A DNA stretch of 64,000 nt from an uncultured Solirubrobacterales bacterium (GCA_963794845.1 CAWCFD010000002.1:890960-954959); one strand, 5' to 3'; positions 5,406 to 48,069 are shown, numbered from the stretch's first letter. Notes: generated by a model from the letters alone, not told the origin. Made by a program: numbers and translations.

Positions 5406-8345
5406 GTGAGTAAGAATCATTCGGTCATGGGCACTTCTGGAAGACTTCGCTCAAGTGCGTCCAAAATGGGCGCCTCGGGTGGCGCCGCGGCATCGGCGGG
5501 CTCAGAGTTCCAGGCGCGTGTGGCCGCGTTCTTCGGGGTGGCGATGCTGTCCGAGCAGCTTGCCGTTGCCCGGTTTGATCTGCAGGAGGGGGTGCGCGTC
5601 GAGGCAGTGCGCTGCGAGCAGTTCGCCGCGGTCGACGATGTGCGCTTGGCGACCTCTGAGGCGGGCCGTGTCGACTTGCAGGCGAAGAACCGAGTGACTG
5701 CGAGTAAAGGCGAGCGGTCGCCTCTTGCAGGCGCGCTGGGACAGTTCGTCAACGCATTCCTCGACGCGCGTGATGGGGTCGACCCGCGCGGCGCATTGAG
5801 CAAACAGCGCGACCGTCTCGTGCTTGCGTGTGGACCCACCAGCTCGGCTTCGGTGCGCCGAGCGCTGCCGGCTCTGCTCGAACGCCTGCGCGAGGACCCA
5901 CCGGCGAGCCCCGATGAACTGACGTTGAGGAACAAGGACGAGCGGACGATCTGGCCGCTCTTGCTGATGCACCTGCGGCGTGTGTTCGCGGCGCGCACGG
6001 ACTCAGACCCGACGCCGGCGGAGCTGACCGAGCTGCTGTCGCTCATTCGGGTTCGTGAGTTCGAGTTCGACGGTGCCGGGCGGGACACCGAGGCGGCGAA
6101 GACGGCGCTCGCCTCGACCGTGCTCGCTGAGCCTGCGCAGGCCGAGCTTGCGTGGCAGCAAGTGGTGGCGTTGATGCTAAACGCAGCCTCCGGGCAGCGG
6201 GGCCTACGCCGCGAGGCGCTTGCGCAGAGGCTTGCTGGTGCTGGAGTGCAGATGCTGGCAGCCCCCAGCTTCCGAACCGACGTCGAGCGCTTGCGCAGCG
6301 AGACCGAGCGCAGCCGGGCGGTGCTACGTCGCTTCGGCGCGATCGAGCTGTCCTCGGGGGCGGTGAAGATCACCCGCTCCGTCGCGGCGGCCGCGCGCGC
6401 CCGCGCAGACGAGGCTCCGTGTCTGGTGATCTCGGTGCCCGGCGGCGGCAAGAGCGGCGTCGTCAGCGACGTGGTCGAGGCGCTGCTTGGTGACGCCCAA
6501 GACGTCGTTGCCCTGGCTGCTGACAGTTACAAGGTGGCTGACGAAGCTGAGCTTGCCGAGCGGCTGGGCCTGGAGCACCGCTTGGCCGATGTGCTCGCGG
6601 CCTGGCCGGGGGAGCGTAAGGGCGTGCTAGTGATCGACGGGTTGGACGCTGCGCGCGGAGGCGATGGGCTCGCGGTGTTCACGTCGCTCATCGAGACCGT
6701 TGCCGCGCGCGACGGACGCTGGACGGTGCTCGCGTCGATCCGCAGCTTCGACCTCCGCTACAACCCTCGCTTGCAGGAAGCATTCAGGCAGGGCGCGGGC
6801 GCGCTAGAGCTGGTGGACTCCGAGTTCGCCGGCACCCGGCACCTACTCGTGCCGGAGCTAGATGCGGAGGAGATCAGCCAGGCCGCCGCGCGAATCCCGC
6901 GGCTGGCTGAGCTGCTCGACGGAGCGCCGGAGGATCTGCGTCAGCTGGCGCGAAATCCGTTCAACCTGGCCAGGCTCGCCGAGCTGCTGGAGGCGGGTGC
7001 TGCTAGCGACGAGCTACGCCCGCTGCGCACGCGCCTTGAGCTATTGGAGGTCTACTGGAAGCATCGCGTGCTGTCACCGGCTGACGGCGCCGACAACCGT
7101 GTGCGGCTGGCACGAACGCTGTGCGATACAGCGACCCGAGCGCCTGCCCTGTTCGCTGTGCGTGCCGATGTGGCCACCGGCGAAGAAAACGATGCAGCGA
7201 TCCGCGACCTGCTCGGCTCGGGTGTGCTGGTCGAGGCCCAGAGCCAGACGGGTGCGGACACCCTTGCGTTCTCCCACCATGTCCTGTTCGATTATGCGGT
7301 CGCACGGCTGATGCTCCGCGTCGACCGGCTTCAACTGGCAGAGCTTGTCCGCGCGCGTCCTGAGCTTGCGCTGGTGGCAAGACCGAGCTTCACACTGCAC
7401 TTCCAGTACCTGTGGGAGCAACAGCGCGAGATGTTCTGGACGCTCACGCTTGAGCTGTCGGGAGACGCGTCGCTGCCATTGCTCGGAAGGATCGTGGCGC
7501 CAGCCGTCGCCGCCGATGCGGCGTCTGCCGATGATCTCGATCCGTTGATCGGTGCTCTCAGCTCCGGTGGCGAACGCCGGGAGCACGCACTGGCCGCGCT
7601 CGTGCATGTGGTCGGTGCGGCGCTCGCCGGCGGCAGCGACGGCCGCCCGCTGCAAAAAGCCAGCGTCCAGGTTTGGGCGAGCTTCGCCGACCGGCTAAGC
7701 GAGCATCTCGACGATCACATCGCCACGCAACTCCGGATACTGACCTGGGGGCTGATCGCGGAGCGCGAGCGACTAGGGGATGACGAGCTGGCGGCGGTGG
7801 GGCGAGTCGGCAGGCGCCTGCTGCGGCGAGCGCTCGACAACGAGCCCTATCGGTTCGACCTCGTCTACGTGGGCCTCGACGCGGTCGCTGCAACCTACGC
7901 GACAGACCCGCAGGGGTCTCGGGATCTACTCGGCCGGTTCGTCGCGCCGGAGAGGATGGCGAGGCTGGGCTGGCAGGAGCTTAGCTGGGTGATGGACGCG
8001 CTGTTCACCCTCCGGCGGGAGGAGCCGGAGCTTGTCGCGCAGCTGTATGCAAGTGCGTTCGCCGCGCCGGAACCCGACGGAACCGCAGTGCCGATGGGCG
8101 GCCCGGTGACGACGCTGATCTCCAACCGAGGCCAGGATTTCAGAGTCGCGCTTACGAACCTGGCCGAACGTTTCCCCGCGTTCTTGAAAGATGCTCCCGA
8201 GGCTGCGGTGGACGCGTTGATCGAGGTGTGCCGCGCCACCGGCGAGCAACGGTCCCTCGTCGCCGAAGCCCCTGAACGTGAGCTGCGCTGGCAAGGGCAG
8301 ACCGGCACGGTGATCGACGCCTTCAGTGTCGGGTTGGAACTGTGA
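5406..8345 (+). CDS. nuclease-like N-domain + NACHT/STAND-like P-loop NTPase + helical C-region (979 aa)
   Basis: N-terminal E..DD..QxK pattern (EQFAAVDDVRL..GRVDLQAKN), Walker A VPGGGKSGV, Walker B VLVIDGLDAARG, and a long Leu/Ala-rich helical C-terminus. A GTG/ATG start cluster lies at 5406-5470. Confidence 0.75.
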   Translation: MSKNHSVMGTSGRLRSSASKMGASGGAAASAGSEFQARVAAFFGVAMLSEQLAVARFDLQEGVRVEAVRCEQFAAVDDVRLATSEAGRVDLQAKNRVTASKGERSPLAGALGQFVNAFLDARDGVDPRGALSKQRDRLVLACGPTSSASVRRALPALLERLREDPPASPDELTLRNKDERTIWPLLLMHLRRVFAARTDSDPTPAELTELLSLIRVREFEFDGAGRDTEAAKTALASTVLAEPAQAELAWQQVVALMLNAASGQRGLRREALAQRLAGAGVQMLAAPSFRTDVERLRSETERSRAVLRRFGAIELSSGAVKITRSVAAAARARADEAPCLVISVPGGGKSGVVSDVVEALLGDAQDVVALAADSYKVADEAELAERLGLEHRLADVLAAWPGERKGVLVIDGLDAARGGDGLAVFTSLIETVAARDGRWTVLASIRSFDLRYNPRLQEAFRQGAGALELVDSEFAGTRHLLVPELDAEEISQAAARIPRLAELLDGAPEDLRQLARNPFNLARLAELLEAGAASDELRPLRTRLELLEVYWKHRVLSPADGADNRVRLARTLCDTATRAPALFAVRADVATGEENDAAIRDLLGSGVLVEAQSQTGADTLAFSHHVLFDYAVARLMLRVDRLQLAELVRARPELALVARPSFTLHFQYLWEQQREMFWTLTLELSGDASLPLLGRIVAPAVAADAASADDLDPLIGALSSGGERREHALAALVHVVGAALAGGSDGRPLQKASVQVWASFADRLSEHLDDHIATQLRILTWGLIAERERLGDDELAAVGRVGRRLLRRALDNEPYRFDLVYVGLDAVAATYATDPQGSRDLLGRFVAPERMARLGWQELSWVMDALFTLRREEPELVAQLYASAFAAPEPDGTAVPMGGPVTTLISNRGQDFRVALTNLAERFPAFLKDAPEAAVDALIEVCRATGEQRSLVAEAPERELRWQGQTGTVIDAFSVGLEL

Positions 8346-10309
8346 TCTACCGCGACGATCAGATGATGCTCGAGGCGTTCAGGGAGCGACTGATCGAGCT
8401 TGCCGGCGCGGGCGACAGCGAGGCGGTGCAGACGCTGCTCACGCCCCTAGCGGGCCGGGCTGTGGACGCGTCGTTGTGGCGGCAGATCCTTCAGGTCGCC
8501 GCCGAGCACCCGCCTGTGCTCGCGCCACTGCTGGCCGAGCCGCTTGCGTCGCCAGCGATCCTGGGAGCCATGAACACGAACGGCGCTGCAGCGGCTGCGC
8601 TCGACGCGTGCTTCCCGTTTCTCGGCAAGCGCGAGCGCGAGGCGGTCGAGACGGCGATCCTTGCTCTCGCCGTCGAGGACGAGTGGGACCAGCATCGGCG
8701 CGACCGTGTGCTGCTCGCGTTGCCGCAAGAGCTGCTTGTCACTGTCGCGGCGCGCGAGCAGCAGGCCCAGGCGGGCTCCCGGCACGAGGCCCGCGAGCGC
8801 CGCGAACGGGAAATGTATGAGCGCGCGGTCGATGAACACGGACAGCACGCGGCGCCGTCGCCACACTCTGACCCCGAGGACGCGATCCTGTCGAAGTTGA
8901 TCGGACGCGTGCAGATCGCGCAGCCGAGCACCGAAGCCGTGGACTGGGATGAGCTGGCGCAGGCGATGCGCGAGTTGAAGGCCCACCTCGATGGCTCGAA
9001 CGGTGTCAGCCAGCTGCGCTCGGAAGCGGGTGGCTGGCTCACGCACGCCGCCGTCGCGACAGCTGCGCGGACTCCGCTCCCAGCTGACGAGGCGACAAGG
9101 GTCGCAGGCGAAGTGCTGCTCGCAGCCAGCGATGACCCACGCCCACATCAGGAGGAGGACCCAGACAGCTTCGACAAGTTCCCGACCGGCGAGTTCCCGT
9201 CTGGCCGCACCGACGCGGCGCGCGGTCTTCTTGGACTTGCCCGCGACCCGGATCTGCTGCCCGATGGCGGGCTCGCCGCGATCGAGCAAATGGCAAACGA
9301 TGTCGCGGCAGCGGTGCGGCTCCCGGTTGCCGAGAATCTGCATCTCCTCGCAGTGAGCGATGAGCAGCTCGCGTGGCGATTGGCCGAGAAGATGACCGCC
9401 GATCCGCGGGCCGCAGTACGCCTGGCGCTGCAGCGCTCGCTCGCCAGCCTGTGCGCGCGTGACCGCGACCGCGCGCTCGACCTCGTGCTCGCGGTCTGCC
9501 GTGCGGAGGCCGCCCGTGAGCAGCCGAACGAGGGCGTGCTCGAGCACTTCAGCCGCCTGCTCCTCGAATCGTGGGTGTGGCAGGGCACATCGCAGGGCAA
9601 AGCGATGCTGGACGAGTTCCTGGCCGACCTGCCCCGCTACGCACACGCCGCGGCGCGCCTGCCCGGAGCGCTGCGAGCCCCCACCACCCACGGCGAAATC
9701 GGCGCAAACGACCTTGAGGCGGACGCCGTACGGGCGCGCGCGATCGACGCGTTCGCCCGCCTCGCGGAAGCCGGCCTGGCCTCACTGGCTGCCTCGTGGG
9801 ACGCCTATCGCGATGCGGCCGCCAAGGGCGAGCCTCTGGACGAGGAGCGCCTGAAGGCGGCCGGCAAGGTTGTCGACCACTGCTGCATGGAGCTGTATTT
9901 CGCGTCCGGCGCGTACCGTGACGGCCAGCACAAGATCAGCGACGCCAAGCGCAGGCGCTTCTACGGCGAGGCGCACGTGCTGATCGATGCGCTGTGCGAG
10001 GCCCCGATACCGCACGCTGCCCACCACGTCATGGAGACCCTCGAGGCTTCGATTGAGTTTGACCCACGCGGAGTGCTGATCCGCAGCGGGCGGTTGATGC
10101 AGGCCGCCCACGACTGGCAGTACGACACAGACGGCCAGGCGCTCAGCCTGTTTGTCAACATGACCCAGCGCTACCTGGCAGAGCACCGCGAGCTGCTCGC
10201 AGACGCCGAATGCCGCGCAAGCCTGCTGCGGTCCCTGGAGCTATTCGTGATGGCTGGCTGGCCTGCCGCGCGGCGTCTCATCTACCGTTTGGACGAGGCG
10301 TTTCGCTAA
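8342..10309 (+). CDS. all-helical repeat (HEAT/ARM-like) partner protein (655 aa)
   Basis: The GTG start overlaps the upstream TGA (GTGA at 8342-8345). The composition is Ala/Leu/Arg-rich with repetitive helices and no catalytic motif recognised. Confidence 0.65.
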   Translation: MIYRDDQMMLEAFRERLIELAGAGDSEAVQTLLTPLAGRAVDASLWRQILQVAAEHPPVLAPLLAEPLASPAILGAMNTNGAAAAALDACFPFLGKREREAVETAILALAVEDEWDQHRRDRVLLALPQELLVTVAAREQQAQAGSRHEARERREREMYERAVDEHGQHAAPSPHSDPEDAILSKLIGRVQIAQPSTEAVDWDELAQAMRELKAHLDGSNGVSQLRSEAGGWLTHAAVATAARTPLPADEATRVAGEVLLAASDDPRPHQEEDPDSFDKFPTGEFPSGRTDAARGLLGLARDPDLLPDGGLAAIEQMANDVAAAVRLPVAENLHLLAVSDEQLAWRLAEKMTADPRAAVRLALQRSLASLCARDRDRALDLVLAVCRAEAAREQPNEGVLEHFSRLLLESWVWQGTSQGKAMLDEFLADLPRYAHAAARLPGALRAPTTHGEIGANDLEADAVRARAIDAFARLAEAGLASLAASWDAYRDAAAKGEPLDEERLKAAGKVVDHCCMELYFASGAYRDGQHKISDAKRRRFYGEAHVLIDALCEAPIPHAAHHVMETLEASIEFDPRGVLIRSGRLMQAAHDWQYDTDGQALSLFVNMTQRYLAEHRELLADAECRASLLRSLELFVMAGWPAARRLIYRLDEAFR

Positions 10310-10834: not shown

Positions 10835-10863
10835 TTGACAGTTGCGCATGGACCTGCTATGAA
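10835..10863 (+). promoter_or_regulatory. sigma70/SigA-type promoter of cassette copy 1
   Basis: TTGACA (10835-10840), a 17-nt spacer, then TATGAA (10858-10863). An equivalent TTGACA-N17-TATAAA sits at 41836-41864 in copy 2. Confidence 0.55.
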
Positions 10864-10869: not shown

Positions 10870-11111
10870 GTCGCCGTCTGCGGGTGCAGATGGGGGCAAG
10901 AACATAAGACTGGGTTTGGGTCGATCCTCGTGGTCGACGGCAAGCGCTTTGGACGGGACCGTGGAGAGGGACCGGGTCAGAACAGAGAGGGAGTTGTAGT
11001 TCGCGTGGTTTCATTGGGGAATAGCGCAGTTGAGAGGTCGTGCGCGCCTGGCGGGTCCTTTATAGGACGTGTCAGCGTCGCTGACACGTCTCTCTCTCTC
11101 TCTCTCTCTCT
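10870..11111 (+). ncRNA. conserved structured non-coding domain (candidate sRNA or riboswitch-like leader), copy 1
   Basis: ~240 nt downstream of the promoter share long identical blocks with 41870..42110: CATAAGACTGG, GAGAGGGACC, GAGAGGGAG, TGTAGTTCGCGTGGTTTC, TTGGGGAATAGCGCAGTTGAGAG, GGCGGGTCCTTTATAGGACG. Stop codons and indels exclude a shared ORF. The domain ends in a palindrome plus CU tract. Confidence 0.5.
11089..11111 (+). repeat. (TC)11T dinucleotide tract
   Basis: Hand-counted 23 nt, the same length as the tract at 42088..42110. Confidence 0.9.
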
Positions 11112-11486
11112 GCGACTCAAGCGCTAGGCCCCTCCGTCCGGCCTTTCGGCCGGCCGGGATCCCCGAAGGGGGATATGGGGAGGGGCATGCCCTCCTCCGT
11201 CCGGCCCTAACGGGCCGTCCGGGCTCCCCCGAAGGGGGTAAGGGGAAGGCTGGGCTCCTCTGCGATCCTCGCCGCCGCGTAAGCCGGTCGGCGTCCTGCC
11301 CCCGTAGGGGAGGGGGGCTCTCTTGTCCTCTTAAGACGCGCGCGCAAGGCGCGCTGTCTGCCTTTCACGATCGTGGGACGGTCGCTGGCGACCCGGCCTC
11401 CGTTCTGCCTGCGCGGGCTTTGCCCCTGGGCGCCATCTCCCTACCGGGCGTCCAGGGGTCCGCGCGATCCGGGGGGGCATGGTGAG
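11112..11486 (+). promoter_or_regulatory. long GC-hairpin-rich 5' leader upstream of the regulator gene
   Basis: Tandem modules of two hairpins, for example CCGTCCGGCC-TTTC-GGCCGGCCGG followed by ATCCCC-GAAG-GGGGAT, occur twice, with GCGCGC-GCAAG-GCGCGC further downstream. The last ~70 nt (CTGGGCGCCATCTCC..GGGCGTCCAGGGGTCCG) are conserved with copy 2. Confidence 0.45.
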
Positions 11487-12515
11487 ATGGCGGGTGGGCG
11501 TCCAGCGAAGCGTCCCGGCGCGCGTGCGGCGCAGCGATACAACGGCGCTGTCCGCGAGCAGTTGGGTGAGCTTCAGCGCGCGCGGATCATCGGCGCGACG
11601 TTCGAGGTCACAGCGCAGCGGGGGGCGGGCAACGTGACCGTCGCGCACGTCGTGGAGCGCTCGGGCGTGTCGCGGCGCACGTTCTACGAGCATTTCTCCG
11701 ATCGCGAAGACTGCCTGCTGGCGGCGTTCGAGCACGCGCTGGCGCTCGCCTCGGAGCGTGTCGTCCCGGTCTATGAAGCCGAGCAGGGTTGGCGTGAGCG
11801 GATCAGGGCGGGTCTGCTCGCGCTGTTGGCCTTCTGCGATGAGCAGCCGAGCGTCGGGCGCTTGCTCGTGTGCGAGTCGCCGGCCGGTGGTCCGAGGGTC
11901 GATGAGCGCCGCCGGGACGCGATCGCGCTGCTCACCCGGATCGTGGATCGGGGGCGCGGTGAGACCAAGAGCGACACGCTCTCCCCGCTCGTGGCGGAGG
12001 GGACCGTCGGCGGTGTGCTCGCGGTTATCCAGGCGCGGTTGCTGGAATCGAAACGCACCCCGCTGCTTGGCCTGACCAACGAGCTGATGAGCATGATCGT
12101 CATGCCATATCTGGGCGCCTCGGCGGCCAGGCGCGAGCTCGACCGTCCAGTGCCCGCACCGGCGGGCGTCCAGCGCGACGGCGCGCTGCTCTCAGACCCC
12201 TTCAAAGACACCGGCATGCGCTTGACCTACCGCACGGTGCGCGTGCTGCTCGCCGTCTCCGAGCACCAGCGCGCCTCCAATCGCACGATTGGCCAGACCG
12301 CCGGCATCACAGACCCGGGCCAGATATCCAAGCTGCTCGGCCGCCTGGCGCGCCTCGGCCTGATCGAGAACACCGGCCTCGGCCCCGGTCAGGGAGCACC
12401 CAACGCGTGGACCTTGACCGACAAGGGCCGGCAGATCGCCGAGAACATCCGCGCCAACACCAAAGGCAGCCAAAGCACCCTGAAGCGCACAAGCCACGGA
12501 GCCAGCGAGCGATGA
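11487..12515 (+). CDS. TetR-family N-terminal HTH + C-terminal MarR-like winged-helix fusion regulator
   Basis: TVAHVVERSGVSRRTFYEHFSDREDCLL is a TetR_N HTH. The C-terminal LTYRTVRVLLAVSEHQRASNRTIGQTAGITDPGQISKLLGRLARLGLIENTG..NAWTLTDKGRQI is MarR/wHTH-like. Start set at MAGGRPAKR, conserved with copy 2. Confidence 0.7.
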   Translation: MAGGRPAKRPGARAAQRYNGAVREQLGELQRARIIGATFEVTAQRGAGNVTVAHVVERSGVSRRTFYEHFSDREDCLLAAFEHALALASERVVPVYEAEQGWRERIRAGLLALLAFCDEQPSVGRLLVCESPAGGPRVDERRRDAIALLTRIVDRGRGETKSDTLSPLVAEGTVGGVLAVIQARLLESKRTPLLGLTNELMSMIVMPYLGASAARRELDRPVPAPAGVQRDGALLSDPFKDTGMRLTYRTVRVLLAVSEHQRASNRTIGQTAGITDPGQISKLLGRLARLGLIENTGLGPGQGAPNAWTLTDKGRQIAENIRANTKGSQSTLKRTSHGASER

Positions 12516-12674
12516 GCCGCCGCCCACGCATCCTCGCTCCCACCGGCCGGGACGCCACACCAAAGCTTGTGTCTCACTGTGAAGTAGCAAGTAAACCTAA
12601 ATCAATCTCATTCTTACATCAATCTGTATCTGTGGACCCACGCGCTAGGCGCGCTTTCAGGAGGGGATGGCTCG

Positions 12675-15600
12675 ATGAACGCTCGTAGGCTCTATTTGGC
12701 GGTTGTGGCGTCGTTGTGCGCGCTGGGCGCCGCGCTTGCCGTGAGTGTGGCTCCCGCGGGGGCCGTGCTGCCGGCCCAGTTCGGTGAAGCGGGTGAACTG
12801 GCCGGTCAGTTCGAGGGGCCTACGGGTATCGCGGTGGATCAGACCAGTCAGGATGTGTATTTGATGGATCGTGGGAACCAGCGGGTCGATGAGTTCACTG
12901 GTGAAGGGCAGTTCCTGCGCGCGTGGGGGTGGGGTGTTCACAACGGTGCCGACGAATTTCAGATCTGTGGTCCTGGGGCGTCCCCGCCGACCAAGAGGTG
13001 TCAGGATGGAATTCCGCGACACGACCAGGGCGGCGTGGCGGACGGGGCGGGCCAGTTTGATTATCCGGAAGGTAACGGGGTTATCGCGGTAGATAACGCG
13101 TCGGGGGATCCGTTGGACATGTCCGTGGGGGATGTGTATGTAGCCGATATCAGAAACGGCCGTGTTGAGAAGTTCGGTCCGAACGGCGAATTCCTGGCGG
13201 CGTTGACCGAACATTTGGGTCGGCCGGAGTCGATCGCGGTCGGTGCGACGGGGACGCTGTTCGTAGGTGAAGCCGCCAGTGTTCAGGAGTTCTCCTCCGA
13301 AGGTACCTACGAGATGACCTTGGCGTTGGAAGGCGGCTCCGGGTCTGTCAAGGGTCTCGCGGTCGATGCGGCGGGCGATCTGATCGTCAACGCCGAAGAC
13401 GGCAGTGTGCGTGAGTACAGCGAATCGGGGACACTGCTGCAGACGCTCGTGGCCGAAGGCGCCAGCTCGATCGCGCTGGGGTCCCACGAAGAACTGTTCG
13501 CCAGCGTCGGCCGTGAATCAATCAGAATGTTGGAGTTCGCGCCCTCCGGTGAAGAGATCGCGAGCTTCGACACCACCGTCAGCAACTCAAAAGAAATACC
13601 AGGGCGCTATGGCCTTGCTTTCGGCGATGCGCTCGGCGGGCTATACGTCGCCACCCAGATTTACGAGCCCGAAACGAATAGCACGACAGACGATGTTGGT
13701 GTGGTGGCGCCGCCTCTAGGTCGGGAGCCTTATCTCCCTTCGGTTTCGGTTAGCGAAGTACAGCCGACTGGCGCGACGCTGCAAGCGAGAATCGACCCGG
13801 AGAATCACGCGACCAGCTACCGTTTCGAATACGGTCAAACGGAAGCGTACGGGTCGAGCGTGCCCGTGCCGGACGGCTCTCTGGCGGCGAGCTTCGAAGA
13901 AGAAACGGTCGCGCTGCCGATCGCGAAACTCCGTGCCGGCACGACCTACCACTACCGGCTGGTGGCCTCCAGCGAATGCGAACCGGAAGCACACCCCGGC
14001 ATACAGTGCCCCGTGCACAGCGAAGATCGCACGTTCTCGACGCTACCGGCCGTCTCGATCGACAGCGAGTACGCCACCGCGGTCGCCTCCACGAGCGCCA
14101 CGCTCGGCGCGCAGTTTAACCCGTTGGGCGCACCGGCGACGTACACCATCGAATACGGAGCCACGACGGCCTACGGTCACATGACGTCGCCGGCGTCGCT
14201 GAGCCCTGTCTCAACGGATGTGGGCGTGAGCGCGCATGTCGATGGGCTGGAACCCGACACGCTCTACCATTATCGTGTCGTCGCGCACGACGAACGCGAA
14301 GGGCAGACCTATACGGTCGAAGGGGCCGACGAGGCGTTCACGACTCAGCCGGCCGGCGCGCCGTTCGCACTGCCAGACGGCCGTGCTTGGGAACAGGTCT
14401 CGCCGGTGAACAAGCACGGAGCGCAAATCTTCGAACTGCCGCGCGCAGAAGAAAATGTCTATCCGATGCAGGCGTCGTTGGCTGGTGACGCGATCGCATA
14501 CACGGCGGGCACTCCAACCGAATCGAATCCGACGGGGTACCTCGCGTTTACGCAGGTGCTTTCCAGGCATGGCGTGGACGGGTGGACATCGCAGGATCTC
14601 GCGACGCCCAATGCATTGCTGGCGGGCGCTGAAATCAATTACATGGAATTCCCGATCTTCTCCGAAGATCTGTCCGGGGCGCTGGTTGAGCAGCTGGGGG
14701 CGGACGCTCCGCTGCTCTCACCGTTGGCGAGTGAATTGACGCCGTACGTGCGCCGGCAGAGCGCCTGTGAATCGCAGGCGAGTGCGAGCGAATGCTACAC
14801 GCCGCTGATCACCGGCAAGCAGGGGGACGCCGACGTGCCGGCAGGCACACACTTCGCCTACCCGGTTCCCAGCGAAATCGACCAAGAATTGAATCTTGAA
14901 GGGGCGACCGGCGATCTCAGTCATGTGGTGTTCGGATACGAGCACCACCAGAGCAGGTATTATGAGGAACCTAATCATCCTACGCCTGAATCGGCTTCGC
15001 TGACCGAAACGCCCGCGTCGACGGGCGGGTTGTATGAGTGGTCGGCGAGCGAACCGCCCGCGAAGCGGCTGCGGCTGGTGAGCGTGCTTCCCGACGGCAA
15101 AGCAGCGGAAGAAGATAGCGAACTCGGGGGAGATGTAGGCGGTGTTCTTGGGCTGCACACCAATGGTCGTGGGGCAATCGCGGCAAACGGTTCGCGCATA
15201 TTCTGGAGCGGGAGTAGGGGCAACGGAGAATCGCTTCACGTCTCGCTTTATATGCGCGATTTTGCCAGGGGCGAAAAGGGCGAAACGCTTGAAATCGGCG
15301 AACCGGAACCGGGGGAAGAAACGGAAGCCGGCAGTGCGCTCTATCAGTCGACTGCGAGCGATGGGTCGAAGGTCTTCTTCACCGATAGCGGGCGCCTGAT
15401 CGAAGGCGCGAGTAACGACAGTTTCTACGAGTGTGAAATCGTCGAAGTGGCCGGGAAGCTGAAGTGCAGGTACACGGATCTGACCCCGAGCGGCGGCGCG
15501 ACGAAATTGGAGTTGGGCTCCAACGCAGACGGCTCCTATGTGTATTTCGCGACGACGAAGAGCGAGGCGCTATTGCAGGATAATCTGTACGTACGTCACG

Positions 15601-16535
15601 AAGGCGTGACGAAGCTGATCGCCGAAGACGTGCAGCCCGGCGAACCATACGACTTCGCGGAAGGGACCTGGGAACAGAAAGAGATGAGGATGTCGCCGAG
15701 CGGGCGGTTCGCGGCATTTCTGTCCAAGGCGCCGTTGACCGGTTATGACAATGTGGATTTGGCGACGGGGCAGCCCGATTCAGAGGTGTTTGTGTATGAC
15801 GCGCAGACGGGCGATTTGGCGTGCGCCTCATGCAACCCGTCGGGCGCACGTCCGGTGCATGGGGGCGCGTGGGTTCCCGGTTGGACGACCTATGCTTACC
15901 AGTCGGCGTACCTGTCCAATAGCGGCCGGTTGTTCTTCAACACCGCCGAAGCGTTGGTGGCGCAGGACATCAATGGTGTGGCGGATGTGTATGAGTGGGA
16001 GCCTGCGGGTGTGGGCAGTTGCACGGTGGCGAGCTCGACCTATAGTCCCGCGTCGGGTGGTTGCGATGGGTTGATCTCCTCTGGCACGTCATCGGAAGCC
16101 TCGACGTTCGTGGACGCCAGCGAATCGGGCGATGATGTGTTTTTCTTGACGCTCGAAAAACTCGTGAAGCAGGACACGGATACGTCCTTCGATTTGTATG
16201 ACGCGCACGTGTGCGGGAGTGGCTGGCAGTGCGCGAGCCCGCCCGCGGCGGCGCGTGAATGCACGACCACGGATGCCTGTCGCGCGGCGCCACTCTCGCA
16301 GCCTGAGATCTATGGCGCGCCGTCGAGCGCGACGTTCACGGGCGCCGGCAACGTCAGCTCGTCGCCGCCGGCGTCTGGGAAGACGGTCAAGTCGAAGTCC
16401 GCGGCGAAACTGAGGGCCGAGAAGCTCGCGAAGGCATTGCGTGCCTGCGCTCGCAAGCCCAAGCGCAAGCGCAGGGCATGCAGACGCAGCGCGCGAGCGA
16501 AGTATGCGATCAGCGACAGGGGGGTACGGCGATGA
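12675..16535 (+). CDS. secreted NHL-repeat / Fn3-like x2 / PD40 (TolB-like) beta-propeller protein with Cys-rich, polybasic C-terminus
   Basis: RBS AGGAGGGGA precedes a signal peptide ending ...AVSVAPAGA. NHL-like blades (GQFEGPTGIAVD, VYVADIRNGRVEKF), two TxYRFEYG...YHYR(L/V)VA units, and DGSxVFF/DGSYVYF blades follow. The tail is KSKSAAKLRAEKLAKALRACARKPKRKRRACRRSARAKY. Confidence 0.75.
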   Translation: MNARRLYLAVVASLCALGAALAVSVAPAGAVLPAQFGEAGELAGQFEGPTGIAVDQTSQDVYLMDRGNQRVDEFTGEGQFLRAWGWGVHNGADEFQICGPGASPPTKRCQDGIPRHDQGGVADGAGQFDYPEGNGVIAVDNASGDPLDMSVGDVYVADIRNGRVEKFGPNGEFLAALTEHLGRPESIAVGATGTLFVGEAASVQEFSSEGTYEMTLALEGGSGSVKGLAVDAAGDLIVNAEDGSVREYSESGTLLQTLVAEGASSIALGSHEELFASVGRESIRMLEFAPSGEEIASFDTTVSNSKEIPGRYGLAFGDALGGLYVATQIYEPETNSTTDDVGVVAPPLGREPYLPSVSVSEVQPTGATLQARIDPENHATSYRFEYGQTEAYGSSVPVPDGSLAASFEEETVALPIAKLRAGTTYHYRLVASSECEPEAHPGIQCPVHSEDRTFSTLPAVSIDSEYATAVASTSATLGAQFNPLGAPATYTIEYGATTAYGHMTSPASLSPVSTDVGVSAHVDGLEPDTLYHYRVVAHDEREGQTYTVEGADEAFTTQPAGAPFALPDGRAWEQVSPVNKHGAQIFELPRAEENVYPMQASLAGDAIAYTAGTPTESNPTGYLAFTQVLSRHGVDGWTSQDLATPNALLAGAEINYMEFPIFSEDLSGALVEQLGADAPLLSPLASELTPYVRRQSACESQASASECYTPLITGKQGDADVPAGTHFAYPVPSEIDQELNLEGATGDLSHVVFGYEHHQSRYYEEPNHPTPESASLTETPASTGGLYEWSASEPPAKRLRLVSVLPDGKAAEEDSELGGDVGGVLGLHTNGRGAIAANGSRIFWSGSRGNGESLHVSLYMRDFARGEKGETLEIGEPEPGEETEAGSALYQSTASDGSKVFFTDSGRLIEGASNDSFYECEIVEVAGKLKCRYTDLTPSGGATKLELGSNADGSYVYFATTKSEALLQDNLYVRHEGVTKLIAEDVQPGEPYDFAEGTWEQKEMRMSPSGRFAAFLSKAPLTGYDNVDLATGQPDSEVFVYDAQTGDLACASCNPSGARPVHGGAWVPGWTTYAYQSAYLSNSGRLFFNTAEALVAQDINGVADVYEWEPAGVGSCTVASSTYSPASGGCDGLISSGTSSEASTFVDASESGDDVFFLTLEKLVKQDTDTSFDLYDAHVCGSGWQCASPPAAARECTTTDACRAAPLSQPEIYGAPSSATFTGAGNVSSSPPASGKTVKSKSAAKLRAEKLAKALRACARKPKRKRRACRRSARAKYAISDRGVRR

Positions 16536-19500
16536 GCGGCGTGTTGGAGAAGACGAACGACAGGCTGCTTGTTCGTGTTGGGCCGGCGCTTGTAGCAGTG
16601 CTGGTGGCGTGGTTGATTGGGACCGGGGTGGCGCGTGCGGAACAACCGTCGCCGTGGTGGGGCTTGACGTCGAGTGCGGCGCCGACTCATATCCAGCCGG
16701 GTGGTGCTCAAAGTGAGGTACAGGAAGCGAGCGGCGCCGTTGGCGGGGAAATCGAAGGTGAACCGGTGCTGTTGTTTGAACTGTCGGTCGGAAGTGGTCC
16801 GGTGTTGGGGTCCTTCGCGGTCGAACCGTTCTTGTCGGCGAATCCCTTGGGTCCCCTATACGAAGCGATTTTTGGGCTGAGTCCGGCGACCGATGAAAAC
16901 TTGCAGAAAGCGCTCGAATCCAGTCAGGCATACGGTCCGGGCGGCGTGAGCGTGACGGGCGGTCCGATCGGGACCGCGCCGATAACGATCACGGCGAGGG
17001 GTGGTGCTGCCGACGCGCCGCTGCCTGCGGTCAAAATAGTCCCGCTCATGGGCGAAGCGCAGACGAAAGTCCTCACGCCGGGTCGAGGTGACGGCACGAT
17101 CGTCTTGACGGCGCAGAATCTCGGCGATGCGGAAGCCAACGGTGGAGCTGATCCGATCGTCCTCACCGACCTGCTTCCCGCAGGGTGGCGTCCGGCCAGC
17201 TTTGTCGAAGCGGGTTATTGGCCACAGGTGGGGCTTTGGGGGGAGGAACTGCTCGTGCCGACCGAATGTCACAGCACCCCGGTGGGGCCGCGCCTGTCGT
17301 TGAGCTGCTCGTACGCCGCGCACCTGCCTGCCGGCGAGCTCTTGGAAGAGCGGGTCGCGGTAACCGACGCGGGCGCGACATCGGGTGCGATCAACGAAGC
17401 GAGCGTCTCAGGCGGCGGCGCGGCGACCGTGAAGAGGGCGAACCATCCGGTATTGATCGGTGGCGAAACGCCGTTCGGTATCGAAAACTACGAGATGACG
17501 GCTGAAGAACCGGGGGGAGCCCAGGATACGCAGGCGGGGTCGCACCCGTTCCAGTTGACGACGACGTTCACGTTGAATCAGAACGGCGAACGCGATCCGG
17601 CGGGCGCGGCGAACAAGGATCTGCGCTTCAACCTGCCGCCGGGGCTGATCGGCAACCCGACACCGTTCGCGCGGTGCACGACGCAACAGTTCCAAGAAAA
17701 CAAATGTCCGATCGGCTCGATCGTAGGGTATGGGAGCACCACATTTATCGGGCGTGGCTACGTCGCTCCCCAGAATACCGATAACGCGGTCTACAACATG
17801 GTTCCGAACGTCGGCGAGCCCGCGCGCTTCGCGTTCTACGCGTTCACCAACCCGGTGTACCTGGACACGTCGGTGCGTACCGGCAGCGATTATGGCGTGA
17901 CGGTGAGTACGGCCAACATCACCGAGAGCGTTGGGTTCATGGCGAGCAGGGTGACGTTCTGGGGCGTGCCGGGTGATCCGCGTCATGATGCGAAGCGCGG
18001 TGGCCCGTCTCCCGAAGCCGCCCATCCCGCGCCGCTGCTCTCGCTGCCGACCTCCTGCACCGGCCCGATGCAGAGCAGCATGGAAGCCGACTCGTGGACG
18101 CAGCCCGGAGTTTTCCTCTCCTCTGAAGCGAATGAACCGATGGCGGAGTTGGATGGCTGTAACCATCTGCCGTTCAACCCCGAAATCAGCGTCGCGCCCG
18201 ATGTGTCCTCCGCGAGCACGCCGTCGGGTTTGACGGTCGGGGTGCGCATCCCCCAGGCCGCGGCGCTGAACCCGACGGGCTTGGCGGAGTCGACGTTGAA
18301 GGATACAACGGTCACATTGCCCGAAGGCGTCGCGGTGAACTCTGGTGGCGCCGATGGCCTGGAAGCGTGCTCTGAGGGCCAGATCGGGTATCTGCAGGGG
18401 GAAAGCACGCCTGAAAATCTGCGCTTCACACCGGAAGAGGGCGAACCGTTCTGTCCCGACGCGTCGAAGGTCGGCACGGTCGAAATCGAAACGCCGCTGC
18501 TGCCGAACGCATTGAAGGGCGCGGTGTATCTGGGCACGCCCGCGCCGTTCGGGGAAGCGGGGATGAACCCGTTCGGGTCGCTGCTCGCGATGTACATCGT
18601 CGCGCACGACCCCGTATCCGGGGTGCTGCTCAAGCTCCCCGGCCAGGTCACGCTCGACCCGAACACGGGCCGGCTGGTCGCGACGTTCGATCACACGCCA
18701 CCTTTGCCGTTTGAAAACCTGCGCATGCACTTCTTCGGTGGTGCGCGCGCACCGTTGTCGACGCCGGCGAAGTGCGGGTCTTATGAAACACAAGCGTCGT
18801 TCGTACCGTGGACGGGGGAAGCGTCCGCGAACGTCGGCTCTACGTTCCGGGTCGACTCGGGTCCGAGTGGCGGTCCGTGCGAGAGCCCGTTGCCGTTCAG
18901 CCCGGCGTTGACGGCGGGCACGACGAGCGTGCAGGCGGGCGGGTTCAGCCCGTTCACGATGACGATGAGCCGCCCCGATGGCAGCCAGACGCTCAGCTCG
19001 ATCGCGCTGCGCATGCCCGACGGGCTCTCGGGGGAGCTCTCCAAAGTCGCGCTATGCTCCGAAGCTCAGGCCAACGAAGGGACCTGCGGTCCGGAAAGCC
19101 AGATCGGCGAATCGACCGTCAGCGTCGGCGTGGGCGGCAACCCGTTCACGGTGACGGGCGGCAAGGTGTTCATCACCGGCCCCTACCACGGAGCGCCGTT
19201 CGGCCTGTCGATACTCACCCCGGCGAAGGCCGGGCCGTTCGATCTCGGCCACGTCGTGGTGAGGGCGAAGATCGAAGTGGATCCGGTTACGGCGGCACTC
19301 ACGATCACGAGCAATCCCCCGGGCACGCAGTACTCGATCCCGACGATCCTGCACGGCATTCCATTGGAGATCCAGCACATCAACGTGACCGTCGGACGGC
19401 CCGAATTCACGTTCAACCCAACCGATTGCGAGAAGAGCGCGATCACCGGCACACTGTTCTCGACCGAAAACACAAGCGATCAGCTGTCGGTGCCCTTCCA

Positions 19501-20179
19501 GGTCACCAACTGCGCGGCGCTCGGCTTCAAACCCGGATTCAAGGTCTCCACGTCAGGAAAGACCAGTCGCGCGAACGGAGCGAGCCTGCGCGTCAAGCTC
19601 GTCTATCCCAAAGCGCCGTTCGGGTCGCAGGCGAACATCAAAAGCGTCAAGGTGGACCTCCCCAAGCAGCTGCCCTCGCGTTTGACGACGCTGCAGAAGG
19701 CGTGCACCTCCGCGCAGTTTGAAGCCAACCCGGCTGGATGCCCGCAAGCCTCGATCGTGGGACACGCCACCGCGATCACGCCCCTGATCCCGGTGCCGTT
19801 GACAGGACCGGCGTATTTCGTCAGCTACGGCGGCGCGAAGTTCCCCGAACTGGTGATCGTGCTCCAGGGTTACGGCGTCACGCTCGACCTGCACGGCGAA
19901 ACGTTCATCAGCAAAGCCGGGATCACCTCGAGCACGTTCCACACCGTCCCCGACGCGCCCGTCGGCAGCTTCGAGTTGACGTTGCCTCAGGGTAAATATT
20001 CGGCGCTGGCCGCGAACGGGAACCTCTGCAAGAGCAAACTCGCGATGCCCACAGCGTTCACCGCGCAGAACGGAGCGGTGATCCACCAGTCGACCAAGAT
20101 CAGCGTCACGGGCTGTGCGAAGACCAAGACGGCCAAGAAGAAGGGCAAGAAGGCCGGCAAGCGCCACAAGCACGGGTAG
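16532..20179 (+). CDS. large secreted protein of unknown family with four Cys-pair modules (paralog 1)
   Basis: The ATG overlaps the upstream stop (ATGA 16532-16535), and a signal-like segment LVAVLVAWLIGTGVARA follows. The motif C-x3-Q-(I/F)...C-P-x2-S-x-(V/I)-G...L-x-G-x-(V/A)-Y-(L/F) recurs four times. The tail is lysine-rich: KTKTAKKKGKKAGKRHKHG. Confidence 0.75.
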   Translation: MSGVLEKTNDRLLVRVGPALVAVLVAWLIGTGVARAEQPSPWWGLTSSAAPTHIQPGGAQSEVQEASGAVGGEIEGEPVLLFELSVGSGPVLGSFAVEPFLSANPLGPLYEAIFGLSPATDENLQKALESSQAYGPGGVSVTGGPIGTAPITITARGGAADAPLPAVKIVPLMGEAQTKVLTPGRGDGTIVLTAQNLGDAEANGGADPIVLTDLLPAGWRPASFVEAGYWPQVGLWGEELLVPTECHSTPVGPRLSLSCSYAAHLPAGELLEERVAVTDAGATSGAINEASVSGGGAATVKRANHPVLIGGETPFGIENYEMTAEEPGGAQDTQAGSHPFQLTTTFTLNQNGERDPAGAANKDLRFNLPPGLIGNPTPFARCTTQQFQENKCPIGSIVGYGSTTFIGRGYVAPQNTDNAVYNMVPNVGEPARFAFYAFTNPVYLDTSVRTGSDYGVTVSTANITESVGFMASRVTFWGVPGDPRHDAKRGGPSPEAAHPAPLLSLPTSCTGPMQSSMEADSWTQPGVFLSSEANEPMAELDGCNHLPFNPEISVAPDVSSASTPSGLTVGVRIPQAAALNPTGLAESTLKDTTVTLPEGVAVNSGGADGLEACSEGQIGYLQGESTPENLRFTPEEGEPFCPDASKVGTVEIETPLLPNALKGAVYLGTPAPFGEAGMNPFGSLLAMYIVAHDPVSGVLLKLPGQVTLDPNTGRLVATFDHTPPLPFENLRMHFFGGARAPLSTPAKCGSYETQASFVPWTGEASANVGSTFRVDSGPSGGPCESPLPFSPALTAGTTSVQAGGFSPFTMTMSRPDGSQTLSSIALRMPDGLSGELSKVALCSEAQANEGTCGPESQIGESTVSVGVGGNPFTVTGGKVFITGPYHGAPFGLSILTPAKAGPFDLGHVVVRAKIEVDPVTAALTITSNPPGTQYSIPTILHGIPLEIQHINVTVGRPEFTFNPTDCEKSAITGTLFSTENTSDQLSVPFQVTNCAALGFKPGFKVSTSGKTSRANGASLRVKLVYPKAPFGSQANIKSVKVDLPKQLPSRLTTLQKACTSAQFEANPAGCPQASIVGHATAITPLIPVPLTGPAYFVSYGGAKFPELVIVLQGYGVTLDLHGETFISKAGITSSTFHTVPDAPVGSFELTLPQGKYSALAANGNLCKSKLAMPTAFTAQNGAVIHQSTKISVTGCAKTKTAKKKGKKAGKRHKHG

Positions 20180-21349: not shown

Positions 21350-22780
21350 TGAGGGTCCAGGAATGGCCTGGGCCCCGACCGCAATCATGGGGGTGCCGAC
21401 ATGACACAGGTTCGCAGTTGGGCTGGTTTGGATGTGCACGCGGCGAAGGTGCTCGCGGTGACGGTTGACGCGGTGTCGGGTGAACTCCGCTCGCGGACGC
21501 TTTCCGGGCGCACGAGCGAGGTGGTCGAGTTCTGTGGTTCGTTGCCCGGGCCGACGCGCGTGGCGTATGAGGCGGGGCCGACGGGGTTCGGGCTCGCGCG
21601 GGCGCTCGCGGCGGCCGGGGTGGGGTGCGTGGTCGCTGCGCCGGGCAAGATCGAGCGTCCCGCGCAGGACCGCGTCAAGACTGATCGTCGCGACGCGGAG
21701 CGCTTAGTGCGGTTGTTGATGGTCGGAGGCCTGTATCCGGTCAGGGTGCCGAGCACCGAGGAAGAGGCGCTGCGGGACCTCGTCCGAGCACGCGAGGACG
21801 TTCGTGGTGATCTGATGCGCGCACGCCACCGGATGAGCAAGCTGTTGCTGCGTCACGAGATCGTCTTCGAGGGTCCCGGCTCTAACTGGACGATCCGTCA
21901 CCGCGAGTGGCTCGGGCGCCTGGAGCTGAGCGACCGGGGTGCGCAGGTCACGCTGCTTGACTATCTCGGCGCGATCGACGCGCTGATCGTGCGCCGGACC
22001 GCGCTGGAGGGCACGATCGGCGAGCTCGTGCCCGCCTCGCCGTGGGCGCAGAGCGTCGCTCGGTTGCGCTGCCTGCGCGGGATGGACACGCTCAGCGCGG
22101 TAGGGCTGTGCGCGGAGATCGGCGACTGGCAGCGCTTCGCCAGGGCGGGACAGCTGATGAGCTTCGTCGGCCTGGTCCCCAGCGAGGACAGCTCCGGGGA
22201 GCGTCGCCGTCAAGGCTCGATCACCAAGACAGGGTCTCGCCACGCCCGCCGGCTCCTCGTCGAGGCCGCCTGGCACTACCGCAGAGCGCCCGCCAAGGGC
22301 ACCGCGCTCAAGCGCCGCCAAGACGGCCAGGACGCGCACGTGATCGCGCTCTCCTGGAAGGCTCAACAGCGCCTGCACCGCACCTGGCGGCGGCTCGACG
22401 CAGAACGAGGCAAGCGACGCACGATCGTCGCGGTCGCTGTCGCCCGCGAACTCGCCGGGTTCTGCTGGGCGATCGCCAACGCCGACTGACCCGACCAGCA
22501 CCACGTCGGTCAAGGAGGCGGCGGGAACAACCTGGCCACCACGCGCGAGAGCACCCGCGGTCGCGCTATGAGCAACCCCCCAACCGGGGGCCACGCTCGA
22601 TCCTAGACAGCGGGCTCTCACGACGAAACCCGGTCCTGCGGTACCCAACCCGCGCATATCAGCCTGACCGCGCGTCGCGCACCCGCCAGGCCCGCCGCCC
22701 CCTTGACCGACCAGGATGCCCGCCCCGTCGCGGGCATCCGGTGCTGGGCACTTGACAAACCGACGTCCATATCAGCGCTA
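21350..22780 (+). mobile_element. IS110-family insertion sequence (ends not determinable from sequence alone)
   Basis: Single DEDD-type transposase gene with ~50-90 nt upstream and ~300 nt of non-coding DNA downstream. No terminal inverted repeats were found, as expected for this family. Confidence 0.45.
21401..22489 (+). CDS. IS110-family (DEDD) transposase
   Basis: N-terminal WAGLDVHAAKVLAVTVD, and a C-terminal Transposase_20-type block LRCLRGMDTLSAVGLCAEIGDWQRFARAGQLMSFVGLVPSEDSSGERRRQGSITKTGSRHARRLLVEAAWHY. Confidence 0.9.
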   Translation: MTQVRSWAGLDVHAAKVLAVTVDAVSGELRSRTLSGRTSEVVEFCGSLPGPTRVAYEAGPTGFGLARALAAAGVGCVVAAPGKIERPAQDRVKTDRRDAERLVRLLMVGGLYPVRVPSTEEEALRDLVRAREDVRGDLMRARHRMSKLLLRHEIVFEGPGSNWTIRHREWLGRLELSDRGAQVTLLDYLGAIDALIVRRTALEGTIGELVPASPWAQSVARLRCLRGMDTLSAVGLCAEIGDWQRFARAGQLMSFVGLVPSEDSSGERRRQGSITKTGSRHARRLLVEAAWHYRRAPAKGTALKRRQDGQDAHVIALSWKAQQRLHRTWRRLDAERGKRRTIVAVAVARELAGFCWAIANAD

Positions 22781-27366: not shown

Positions 27367-27458
27367 GGAGAGGTGGCCGAGTGGCTGAAGGCACTCGCCT
27401 GCTAAGCGAGTATGGGGGTTAAACTCCATCGCGGGTTCGAATCCCGCCCTCTCCGCCA
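27367..27458 (+). tRNA. tRNA-Ser (anticodon GCU), CCA encoded
   Basis: GGAGAGG TG GCC GAGTGGCTGAA GGC A CTCGC CTGCTAA GCGAG, a long variable arm, GCGGGTTCGAATCCCGC and CCTCTCC G CCA. Confidence 0.95.
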
Positions 27459-33551: not shown

Positions 33552-33625
<74 letters not shown>

Positions 33626-41864: not shown

Positions 41865-41869
41865 GACCC

Positions 41870-46613: not shown

Positions 46614-46619
46614 TCAGGG

Positions 46620-48054: not shown

Positions 48055-48069
48055 GGAGAGGACGAACCA

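Follow-up and report, generated by a model that had tools for sequence, protein, structure and literature searches.

A 64,000-nt stretch of DNA from an uncultured Solirubrobacterales bacterium (the window) raises the question of what is made by two large, overlapping genes at 12675–20179. These genes were initially annotated as a two-gene secreted module, for which adhesion, a surface layer, polymer capture or a toxin was proposed as the role. Genes 1 and 2 form the structural part of an operon specific to the Solirubrobacterales, and the repeating unit is three genes and a leader, not two genes. The broader proposal, a conserved, dedicated and duplicated extracellular module that belongs to no described family, holds. 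The pair may well encode a surface fibre or adhesin that is expressed conditionally and anchored without covalent bonds, a reading that we hold tentatively and weigh below against four others.

The gene boundaries agree with those first assigned, including the coupled start of gene 2 (1215 aa), which begins with an ATG at 16532 in a 4-nt overlap (ATGA) with the gene 1 stop codon TGA; a longer open reading frame (ORF) would open at 16478. Sec-type signal peptides can be read from both translations (...APAGA/VLP in gene 1 and ...GVARA/EQP in gene 2). The operon runs in the order promoter, ~600-nt structured leader, TetR-type regulator, gene 1 and gene 2, and this cassette is found twice in the window (Table 1). 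Both of the gene 2 paralogs that the initial annotation had listed are relatives of gene 2; one belongs to the second cassette, and the other stands by itself, with neither a gene 1-like partner nor a leader found upstream.

A homolog search with gene 2 returned more than 3,397 matches, all labelled ‘hypothetical’, and those with a named source are all Solirubrobacteraceae metagenome-assembled genomes (MAGs). An exhaustive profile search yielded 11,418 clusters at 50% identity, 4,634 of them with E ≤ 1e-30. Genomic context was counted in 80 loci retrieved from at least 576 GTDB species-representative loci that encode relatives; all 80 are from Solirubrobacterales MAGs, individual genomes contributing several each. 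In ~75 of the 80, the gene 2-like gene is immediately preceded by a gene 1-like gene, and at 62 of 77 junctions the start codon overlaps the gene 1 stop by 4 nt (ATGA in 26, GTGA in 36). A homolog of the regulator is present within 7 kb in ~64 loci, either 5′ of gene 1 or 3′ of gene 2. Clustering of 458 flanking ORFs revealed no fourth recurrent cassette gene. The initial annotation had staked its case on the modules having no clear homology to a characterised family and on the gene pair and regulator staying together elsewhere. We found no such homology, and the profiled loci show that the association is kept across genomes.

Gene 2 had been described as repeating one module four times. Four modules of ~200 aa (A–D) are indeed real and arose by duplication of a two-module unit, because profile–profile comparison matches B with D (97%, E 2e-11) and A with C (93%, E 2.5e-7) strongly and A with B (62%) or B with C (68%) more weakly. 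The reported conservation of the Cys pairs is borne out by 62 family members, in which all 18 Cys residues of gene 2 are conserved at 97–100%. One pair lies in the N2 domain and two lie in each module: 382/392 and 509/543 in A, 613/641 and 748/783 in B, 842/852 and 966/994 in C, and 1058/1070 and 1166/1195 in D. The C-x3-Q signature assigned to the modules did not survive alignment, since its Gln is variable in the family consensus; a thioester was rejected on the same ground and for want of a CGEQ motif. Identity to homologs climbs monotonically along the protein (N1 0.40, N2 0.41, A 0.59, B 0.61, C 0.68, D 0.82), and N1 and N2 are absent from many relatives. The protein ends in a polybasic tail, with a median of 10 Lys/Arg in the last 25 residues and at least 7 in 93% of homologs. 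Sortase anchoring was rejected because LPXTG is found nowhere in the family: LP.TG is absent from the last 60 residues of 122 gene 2 and 51 gene 1 family members.

By sequence, gene 2 forms a new family outside any characterised one. Neither gene 2 nor its paralog matches a Pfam or NCBIfam family at E ≤ 0.1, gene 2 has no family match in PADLOC or PHROGs, and its giant relatives have none above cut-off. Against PDB sequences, the best phmmer match of gene 2 has E 0.93, and that of the family profile is a spurious one to ClpB (E 0.22). Our literature search found nothing on this family, nor on any Solirubrobacterales S-layer or adhesin. The statement that the module could not be placed is thus correct for sequence families and incorrect for the fold, which is generic immunoglobulin (Ig)-like and distantly similar to pilins and MSCRAMMs (microbial surface components recognizing adhesive matrix molecules) in a Foldseek comparison of module D.

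The mature gene 2 protein was modelled with AlphaFold2 from a 122-sequence alignment. The model is confident and all-β (predicted local distance difference test (pLDDT) 87.4, predicted TM-score (pTM) 0.73), and module D modelled alone gives pLDDT 88.3 and pTM 0.85. Gene 2 is therefore predicted to be a chain of Ig-like β-sandwiches, distantly like the domains of Gram-positive pilins and MSCRAMMs. With the full-length model, Foldseek retrieves the Ig-like domains of PrgB (E 5.5e-13), and macroglobulin (MG) domains of complement and α2-macroglobulin (E ~1e-7) together with integrin legs, all at TM-scores of 0.2 or below; in the viral library BFVD the best match is a DUF11 protein (E 2e-17). These generic multi-Ig matches were rejected as a family assignment. 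For module D the best matches are the CppA pilin, ACE19, SSA1632 and EbpB, with E of 3e-4 to 3e-2 and TM-scores of 0.35–0.45, values at which a CnaA, CnaB or DEv-IgG fold can be assigned only tentatively.

The modules behave as a stalk repeat in the giant relatives of gene 2 (3,400–7,161 aa, with 8–15 matched stretches), as one of them, P0246, consists of module A followed by iterated (B–C)n. The set P0241–P0247, to which it belongs, spans 2,112–7,161 aa and 5–15 matched stretches. Fibrillar adhesins have been defined as a class (PMC8286594), and the tandem stalk and export expected of them are represented here by four homologous modules, the all-β model, the giants and the signal peptide. Gram-positive fibrillar adhesins, MSCRAMMs and pilins (CppA, Ace, EbpB, PrgB) are likewise exported proteins with long chains of Ig-like β-sandwiches, stalk modules iterated to variable length, a distal part that varies and a proximal part that is conserved, and they are the best structural matches of gene 2. 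Unlike them, the gene pair has no LPXTG, no sortase gene recurring among the flanking ORFs of the cassette and no Pfam match to a stalk or adhesive domain; gene 2 also differs in the two Cys pairs of each module, the polybasic tail and an obligatory, translationally coupled double-propeller partner.

Two other groups of proteins invite comparison. The N2 domain and the L-P-x-G-L/V strands of gene 2 resemble what we take to be the DUF11 motif, yet gene 2 and its paralog are unmatched by Pfam DUF11 or CARDB even at E ≤ 0.1, and each module is roughly twice as large as a DUF11 repeat and contains Cys loops. α2-Macroglobulin and complement C3 are also chains of β-sandwich domains, but the TM-score to gene 2 is below 0.1, and gene 2 has no CGEQ, bait region or thioester-containing (TED) domain.

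Among the four proposed roles, the evidence favours a fibrillar, adhesin-like appendage because of the Ig-like stalk, the iterated modules of the giants, the gradient of conservation towards the C terminus and the polybasic tails. A surface layer or coat, in which both proteins would self-assemble into a lattice over the cell and be held by their basic tails as in Lactobacillus-type S-layers, would suit two co-translated, large, exported, β-rich proteins with basic C-termini and a huge, clade-wide family. We nevertheless judge it unlikely. The iterated giants fit fibres rather than lattices, and the Pfam/NCBIfam scan detects no SLH or other S-layer anchoring domain. The several divergent cassettes per genome, each with a TetR-type repressor and a leader, point to conditional rather than constitutive expression, and one window cassette has been hit by an insertion sequence (IS) element. 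The codon signature described below is also opposite to that of DnaK.

The NHL repeats and two Fn3-like units attributed to gene 1, besides its signal peptide, are supported by Pfam matches and, for NHL, by PDB matches. NHL (PF01436) is matched with E 2.5e-7 (30.9 bits, cut-off 20); against PDB sequences, gene 1 matches the NHL propellers of TRIM71, TRIM2 and Brat with E of 1e-14 (TRIM71) to 1e-9, and the family profile matches NHL propeller structures with E of 1e-36 to 1e-49. The first Fn3-like unit (residues 361–437) matches PhoD_N (34.9 bits, cut-off 30) and the second (residues 471–545) matches Pur_ac_phosph_N (31 bits, cut-off 30) and fn3 (28.3 bits, cut-off 25). In the C-terminal ~700 aa, S-x-D-G-x-x-V-F-F...D-x-Y repeats were recognised by eye. 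Their assignment to PD40 (PF07676) finds no match in gene 1 itself at E ≤ 0.1 in the Pfam scan; it is supported by the window paralog at 46456–48054 (E 1.9e-6) and by precomputed matches in many homologs. Family members have a median of 17 Lys/Arg among the last 40 residues, plus two conserved Cys. Among gene 1-like proteins of the 80 loci the C-terminal domain is always kept, and the NHL domain is optional.

Propellers and Fn3 units often serve as scaffolds for binding, and the N-terminal heads are variable. Genomes also carry several divergent cassettes, each under a regulator of the ligand-responsive (TetR) type. Together these features could indicate capture of a polymer or other substrate by a logic resembling that of polysaccharide utilization loci, with each cassette induced by its own ligand and the propellers binding the extracellular polymer. 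Against this, the flanking-ORF clustering shows no recurrent catabolic gene beside the cassettes, be it for a transporter, a hydrolase or another function; no carbohydrate-binding or enzyme domain was detected in the proteins. We regard polymer capture as improbable, to about the same degree as a coat.

The initial annotation mentioned an elaborate leader, which is real and far more remarkable than stated, with a conserved core, a covarying hairpin and a (TC)11 tract. A TTGACA...TAT..T block, the putative promoter, is aligned in most of 57 leaders. The terminal hairpin reads GCG/CGC in cassette 2 and GTG/CAC in cassette 1, a compensatory change, and it covaries across leaders (UA<->CG 31:20, also GC<->AU and AU<->GC). 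RNAalifold applied to a MAFFT alignment of the whole leader recovered only this hairpin and a 4-bp helix. Consensus folds of sub-families agree in suggesting a multi-branch architecture, with the (UC) tract paired to the GA boxes. In the 80 genome loci and the window there are 61 (TC)≥8 tracts, all on the cassette strand and each with the hairpin before it. For tracts followed by an identified gene, the first detected regulator or gene 1 homology begins 58–702 nt 3′ of the tract, and farther away in a few loci.

The leader is dedicated to the cassette and to a family of collagen-like genes. An unbiased metagenome scan for the hairpin followed by (TC)8 found at least 120 contigs. In 81 cases the sequence extends 700 nt or more past the leader; there the nearest following ORF is a regulator in 29, gene 1-like in 31, a collagen-like, N-terminally anchored protein in 5 and another short ORF in 6, with none called in 10. 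The collagen-like proteins are ~250–310 aa long, with an N-terminal anchor (MF..RRRLTYANV..LALVFAMSGGAYAA) and GXY repeats, and several of their genes lie directly behind the leader. A collagen-like protein is itself of fibre type, and we count its presence behind the same leader in favour of a fibre.

Riboswitches and Rho-dependent attenuators, such as the mgtA and ribB leaders, control termination or translation. The cassette leader resembles them in its length, conserved junctions, covarying hairpins, YC-rich tract and position at the 5′ end of an operon. Unlike them, it matches no Rfam family at the gathering score, and the only Rfam matches in the window and four leader-bearing loci were two tRNAs. 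We know of no riboswitch class in which an invariant (UC)11 dinucleotide tract is a feature. As far as our searches show, the leader RNA is undescribed and is a candidate for a new class of cis-regulatory RNA. The (UC)11 tract could pair with the GA-rich boxes, and of all the leader elements it is the strongest candidate for a switch. We favour the interpretation that, exposed or hidden by these boxes, it would act as a Rho-loading (YC-rich) or Shine–Dalgarno (SD)-masking tract.

A perfect dinucleotide repeat in every cassette leader, ranging from 8 to 15 units, could also act by slippage, switching cassettes on and off as phase-variable surface antigens or phage-receptor decoys. The several paralogs per genome and a window neighbourhood rich in defence, toxin–antitoxin and IS genes would be in keeping with this idea. 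Three features of the tract make it less probable than either a coat or polymer capture. The number of units peaks sharply at 11 (104 of 169 tracts), with a second peak at 14, which argues for selection on tract length and against free slippage; contingency loci show a spread. The tract lies in the transcribed leader 3′ of the putative promoter, where its length alters neither promoter spacing nor reading frame. It is also uninterrupted across loci whose proteins are ~50% identical, indicating selection on the sequence itself.

A second signature of the cassette lies in its Glu codons. Genes 1 and 2 had been said, by eye, to use GAA, AAA and TTC more often than their neighbours. The fraction GAA/(GAA+GAG), compared among those genes of the window that have 10 or more Glu codons, is 0.70–0.88 in the five structural genes, which lie within 12675–20179, 43758–51207 and 60955–64000, and mostly 0.00–0.31 in the others, both regulators included, with a few membrane or exported proteins at 0.41–0.54 (pooled, 0.77 vs 0.17). 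The claim thus stands for GAA and mildly for AAA, which is slightly raised in the window (0.29 vs 0.21) and raised about twofold across all loci. It fails for TTC, whose synonymous fraction is lower in the structural genes (0.85 vs 0.92); frequent TTC there reflects more numerous Phe residues, not synonymous preference. Other synonymous families scarcely shift in the window structural genes, and CAA is unchanged across all loci.

Across all loci the median GAA fraction is 0.79 in gene 2-like genes (n = 111), 0.73 in gene 1-like genes (n = 117) and 0.16 in regulators (n = 116). By a crude heuristic for signal peptides, ORFs called by simple rules in cassette neighbourhoods divide into cytoplasmic-like (n = 425, median 0.14), multi-transmembrane (n = 25, 0.25) and those with a signal-peptide-like start and no further transmembrane segment (n = 32, 0.73). 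The signal-peptide-like and cytoplasmic-like classes differ with a Mann–Whitney p of 3e-17, and their GC content at third codon positions (GC3) without Glu codons is 0.81 in both. Removing collagen-like and leader-linked ORFs leaves the signal-peptide class at a median of 0.56 (n = 21). The GAA fraction of the collagen-like genes is 0.76–0.95.

Other explanations of the signature were considered and rejected. The idea that GAA is the codon favoured by strongly expressed genes is contradicted by DnaK, whose GAA fraction is 0.10–0.11 in two cassette-bearing genomes; queries for EF-Tu, GroEL, AtpD, enolase, RpoB, S12, L2 and S3 returned nothing else usable in 1.2 Mb of sequence. A remnant of horizontal transfer or a general shift towards A/T at third positions is contradicted by retention of the signature in the 111 gene 2-like and 117 gene 1-like genes of many genomes. 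The unchanged CAA and the host-like adjacent regulators also speak against these readings, as does GC3 without Glu codons, which is 0.74–0.79 in structural genes, 0.78 in adjacent regulators and 0.81 in other ORFs.

The GAA fractions fall into ranges of 0.10–0.19 for cytoplasmic proteins, DnaK and the regulator included, ~0.56–0.73 for other signal-peptide-like proteins and 0.73–0.94 for the fibre genes. A possible, if doubtful, interpretation is that GAA, and less so AAA, marks the mRNAs of exported proteins. The GAA-richest genes (gene 1, gene 2 and the collagen-like genes) would then form a leader-driven regulon, with secretion or fibre formation gated both by the supply or U34 modification of tRNA-Glu(UUC) and by a riboswitch-like or Rho-dependent leader. 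The window contains no tRNA-Glu. The bldA/TTA system of Streptomyces is a codon-gated gene set in which, as here for exported proteins, a coherent set of genes uses a genome-minor codon; GAA, at ~15–20% of Glu codons, is too common for an on/off gate of that kind. The nearest precedent that we found is the enrichment of AA-ending codons in mRNAs of Magnaporthe oryzae cytoplasmic effectors (bioRxiv 10.1101/2025.11.10.687658). The cassette shares AA-ending codons with those effectors, namely GAA and less so AAA, and differs in that CAA is unaffected and the case is bacterial. A targeted full-text literature search found no report of bacterial codon marking of exported proteins by GAA, and the export-linked switch is undescribed as far as our searches show.

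These observations can be assembled into a model for the fibre or adhesin. Gene 2 would form a rod-like stalk whose modules are stapled outside the cell by disulfides between the paired Cys, of which gene 2 would have nine; oxidative folding is known for actinobacterial pilins, and extracellular stapling would fit with it. The conserved C-terminal parts, cationic tails and variable N-terminal heads suggest a base at the envelope or at the partner, with the heads exposed. The C-terminal module and tail of gene 2 would rest against the anionic envelope of the cell, or dock onto the C-terminal propeller and Cys-rich part of gene 1, which are conserved to the same degree, or do both. The heads, namely N1 and N2 in gene 2 and the NHL propeller with the Fn3 units in gene 1, would point outward and bind a target. 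Coupled translation would supply the two proteins in roughly 1:1 amounts, and expression would be made conditional by a ligand-responsive TetR-type repressor and the leader RNA.

Several results weigh against this model. It has no characterised homolog to lean on, and adhesion is deduced from architecture alone. No known adhesive or anchor domain is found in the proteins by Pfam/NCBIfam; the variable N-terminal domains and polybasic tails are the only candidate head and anchor parts, neither being a recognised domain of that kind, and the polybasic tail as anchor is a conjecture. The fold matches of gene 2 are generic (TM-score <0.5). At the RNA level, leader folding energies are unexceptional (z -2.2 and -0.3), and a match between (TC)n length and total GA-box length was looked for and rejected, there being no correlation (rho -0.05). 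The (UC)n tract never varies, so that its pairing with the GA boxes draws no support from covariation. As DnaK prefers GAG, the codon signature gives no sign of the very high expression of a coat protein. The rivals (S-layer, polymer capture, phase-variable antigen, and toxin or defence) are nonetheless less well supported than the fibre or adhesin.

The third gene of the unit had been annotated as a TetR–MarR regulator. The TetR_N part is secure in both window copies (44.5 bits, E 1.4e-11, in regulator 1 and 38.6 bits in regulator 2; cut-off 24). The MarR-like winged helix–turn–helix, at residues 284–332 of both, scores below the MarR/MarR_2 cut-off of 27 (22.6 and 23.9 bits; MarR_2 in regulator 1 with E 1.2e-4). 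The likely start of regulator 1 is the ATG at 11487, the longest ORF opening at 11373, and its start context, GAGATGGC, is common to both regulators. The spacer between regulator and gene 1 contains short elements that recur in cassette 2. Among these, a AAGCTTGT-centred palindrome and a GAAG.AGCAAGTAAA box are common to both spacers (12560–12600 and 43665–43700) and may serve the TetR–MarR protein as an internal promoter or operator.

In cassette 2 a DDE_5 transposase insertion splits the gene 1-like gene into two parts, and this copy of the cassette is probably inactive. The start context of the N-terminal part agrees with gene 1, and the GAA fraction of the transposase is host-like (0.12). 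Upstream of the third gene 2 paralog are two 21-bp direct repeats (GGTGGAAGAAGTCGTACTTAG; 60596–60616 and 60628–60648) and a 40-bp composite palindrome (AGACGATT..CGTCTAC..GTAGACG..AATCGTCT; 60700–60739), divergent from a Fic/DOC gene at 59106–60584 (-). These elements may be operators of a different regulator.

The surroundings of cassette 1 include a DUF4238 protein (3480–4535, +) with a weak PADLOC ‘DUF4238-Pers’ match. Two overlapping ORFs (5406–8345 and 8342–10309, +) without a Pfam match together match the candidate defence protein PDC-M54A of PADLOC, the first covering profile positions 2–958 (E 1.4e-211) and the second 977–1657 (E 1e-87); they are either a split gene or a two-gene form. 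An IS110-family transposase (DEDD_Tnp_IS110 and Transposase_20; 21401–22489, +) lies ~1.2 kb 3′ of gene 2. A PIN domain is matched in the ORF at 51397–52098 (+; Pfam E 3e-12), and PIN/VapC-like N-terminal sequences were seen by eye only in those at 40366–40755 (-) and 30924–31346 (-); PIN/VapC-like ORFs are scattered between the window cassettes. Toxin–antitoxin genes adjoin the cassettes of two other loci (L001 and L002). The DUF4238, PDC-M54A and PIN/Fic genes and the IS elements suggest a defence or mobile island upstream of cassette 1.

This setting, with a candidate defence gene, toxin–antitoxin genes and IS elements adjoining the locus, and the NHL/teneurin-like propeller matches of large exported proteins, might be taken to indicate a toxin that is secreted, or a module that derives from phages or acts against them. 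We consider this very improbable, and less likely than the other alternatives. The absence of any detected toxin, peptidase, nuclease or other enzyme domain speaks against the toxin among the roles first proposed. Neither gene 1 nor gene 2 has a PADLOC or meaningful PHROG match, both carry Sec signal peptides, and the neighbours are not conserved with the cassette.

Table 1. Coordinates of the cassettes and related features in the window and of collagen-like genes in other loci
Feature	Coordinates	Strand	Description and evidence
Cassette 1 putative σ70-like promoter	10835–10863	+	TTGACA-N17-TATGAA; alignment
Cassette 1 leader core	10902–11110	+	ACATAAG..., hairpin H1, GA boxes, CGCGUG...hairpin, variable hairpin, terminal hairpin, (TC)11
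GA boxes	10963–10972, 10985–10993	+	GGGAGAGGGA and GAGAGGGAG
Terminal hairpin	11066–11090	+
(TC)11 tract	11089–11110	+
Distal leader	11111–11486	+	~375 nt; GC-rich hairpin series up to regulator start; alignment of the two window leaders
Terminator-like site	11299–11316	+	The one such site in the distal leader
Regulator 1	11487–12515	+	TetR_N helix–turn–helix, C-terminal MarR-like winged helix; Pfam
Regulator–gene 1 spacer	12516–12674	+	AAGCTTGT palindrome (12560–12575), GAAG.AGCAAGTAAA box, short hairpin CGCGC-TAG-GCGCG, strong SD GGAGGGGA
Gene 1	12675–16535	+	1286 aa; signal peptide, NHL propeller, 2 Fn3-like units, ~700-aa PD40-type repeat region with Cys-rich end, polybasic tail
Gene 2	16532–20179	+	Signal peptide, N1, N2 (DUF11-like motif), modules A–D (2 Cys pairs each), polybasic tail
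tRNA-Ser(GCU)	27367–27458	+
tRNA-Arg(ACG)	33552–33626	+
Cassette 2 putative promoter and leader core	41836–42109	+	Promoter 41836–41864 (TTGACA-N17-TATAAA), core 41900–42109, (TC)11 42088–42109
Regulator 2	42522–43619	+	TetR_N and MarR-like; Pfam; 65% identical to regulator 1
Cassette 2 spacer elements	43660–43700, 43925–43943	+	As in the cassette 1 spacer
Cassette 2 gene 1-like, N-terminal part (Fn3 region)	43941–45059	+	BLASTP to gene 1 residues 358–812; fn3 match
DDE_5 transposase (IS element)	45056–46393	-	Pfam DDE_5, E 5.7e-24
Cassette 2 gene 1-like, C-terminal part	46456–48054	+	PD40 repeats, Cys-rich end, polybasic tail; 31.7% identical to gene 1 residues 830–1285
Cassette 2 gene 2 paralog	48070–51207	+	1045 aa; no N1/N2, begins at module A; 49.6% identical to gene 2 over 946 aa
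Third gene 2 paralog	60955–>64000	+	Continues past window end; 38% identical to gene 2 over 915 aa
Collagen-like gene, L008	1961–2893
Collagen-like gene, L026	16274–17071
Collagen-like gene, L037	10178–10930
Collagen-like gene, L084	331–1119
Collagen-like gene, L168	595–1344
Collagen-like gene, L194	928–1710

The Solirubrobacterales are abundant in soil and almost uncultured, and the cassette is among the most expanded families of this clade (at least 576 species-representative loci and 11,418 protein clusters) while being wholly unannotated. If its proteins are surface fibres, they would probably be a main interface of these bacteria with soil particles, plants or phages. The leader and the codon switch may prove weightier than the proteins themselves, the (UC)11 tract being, in our view, unprecedented. 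Should the GAA signature extend genome-wide, it would be a bacterial case of codon-based marking of the secretome, and a simple sequence rule would predict exported proteins in the clade. The leader RNA and the GAA switch lift this locus above another large hypothetical surface protein.

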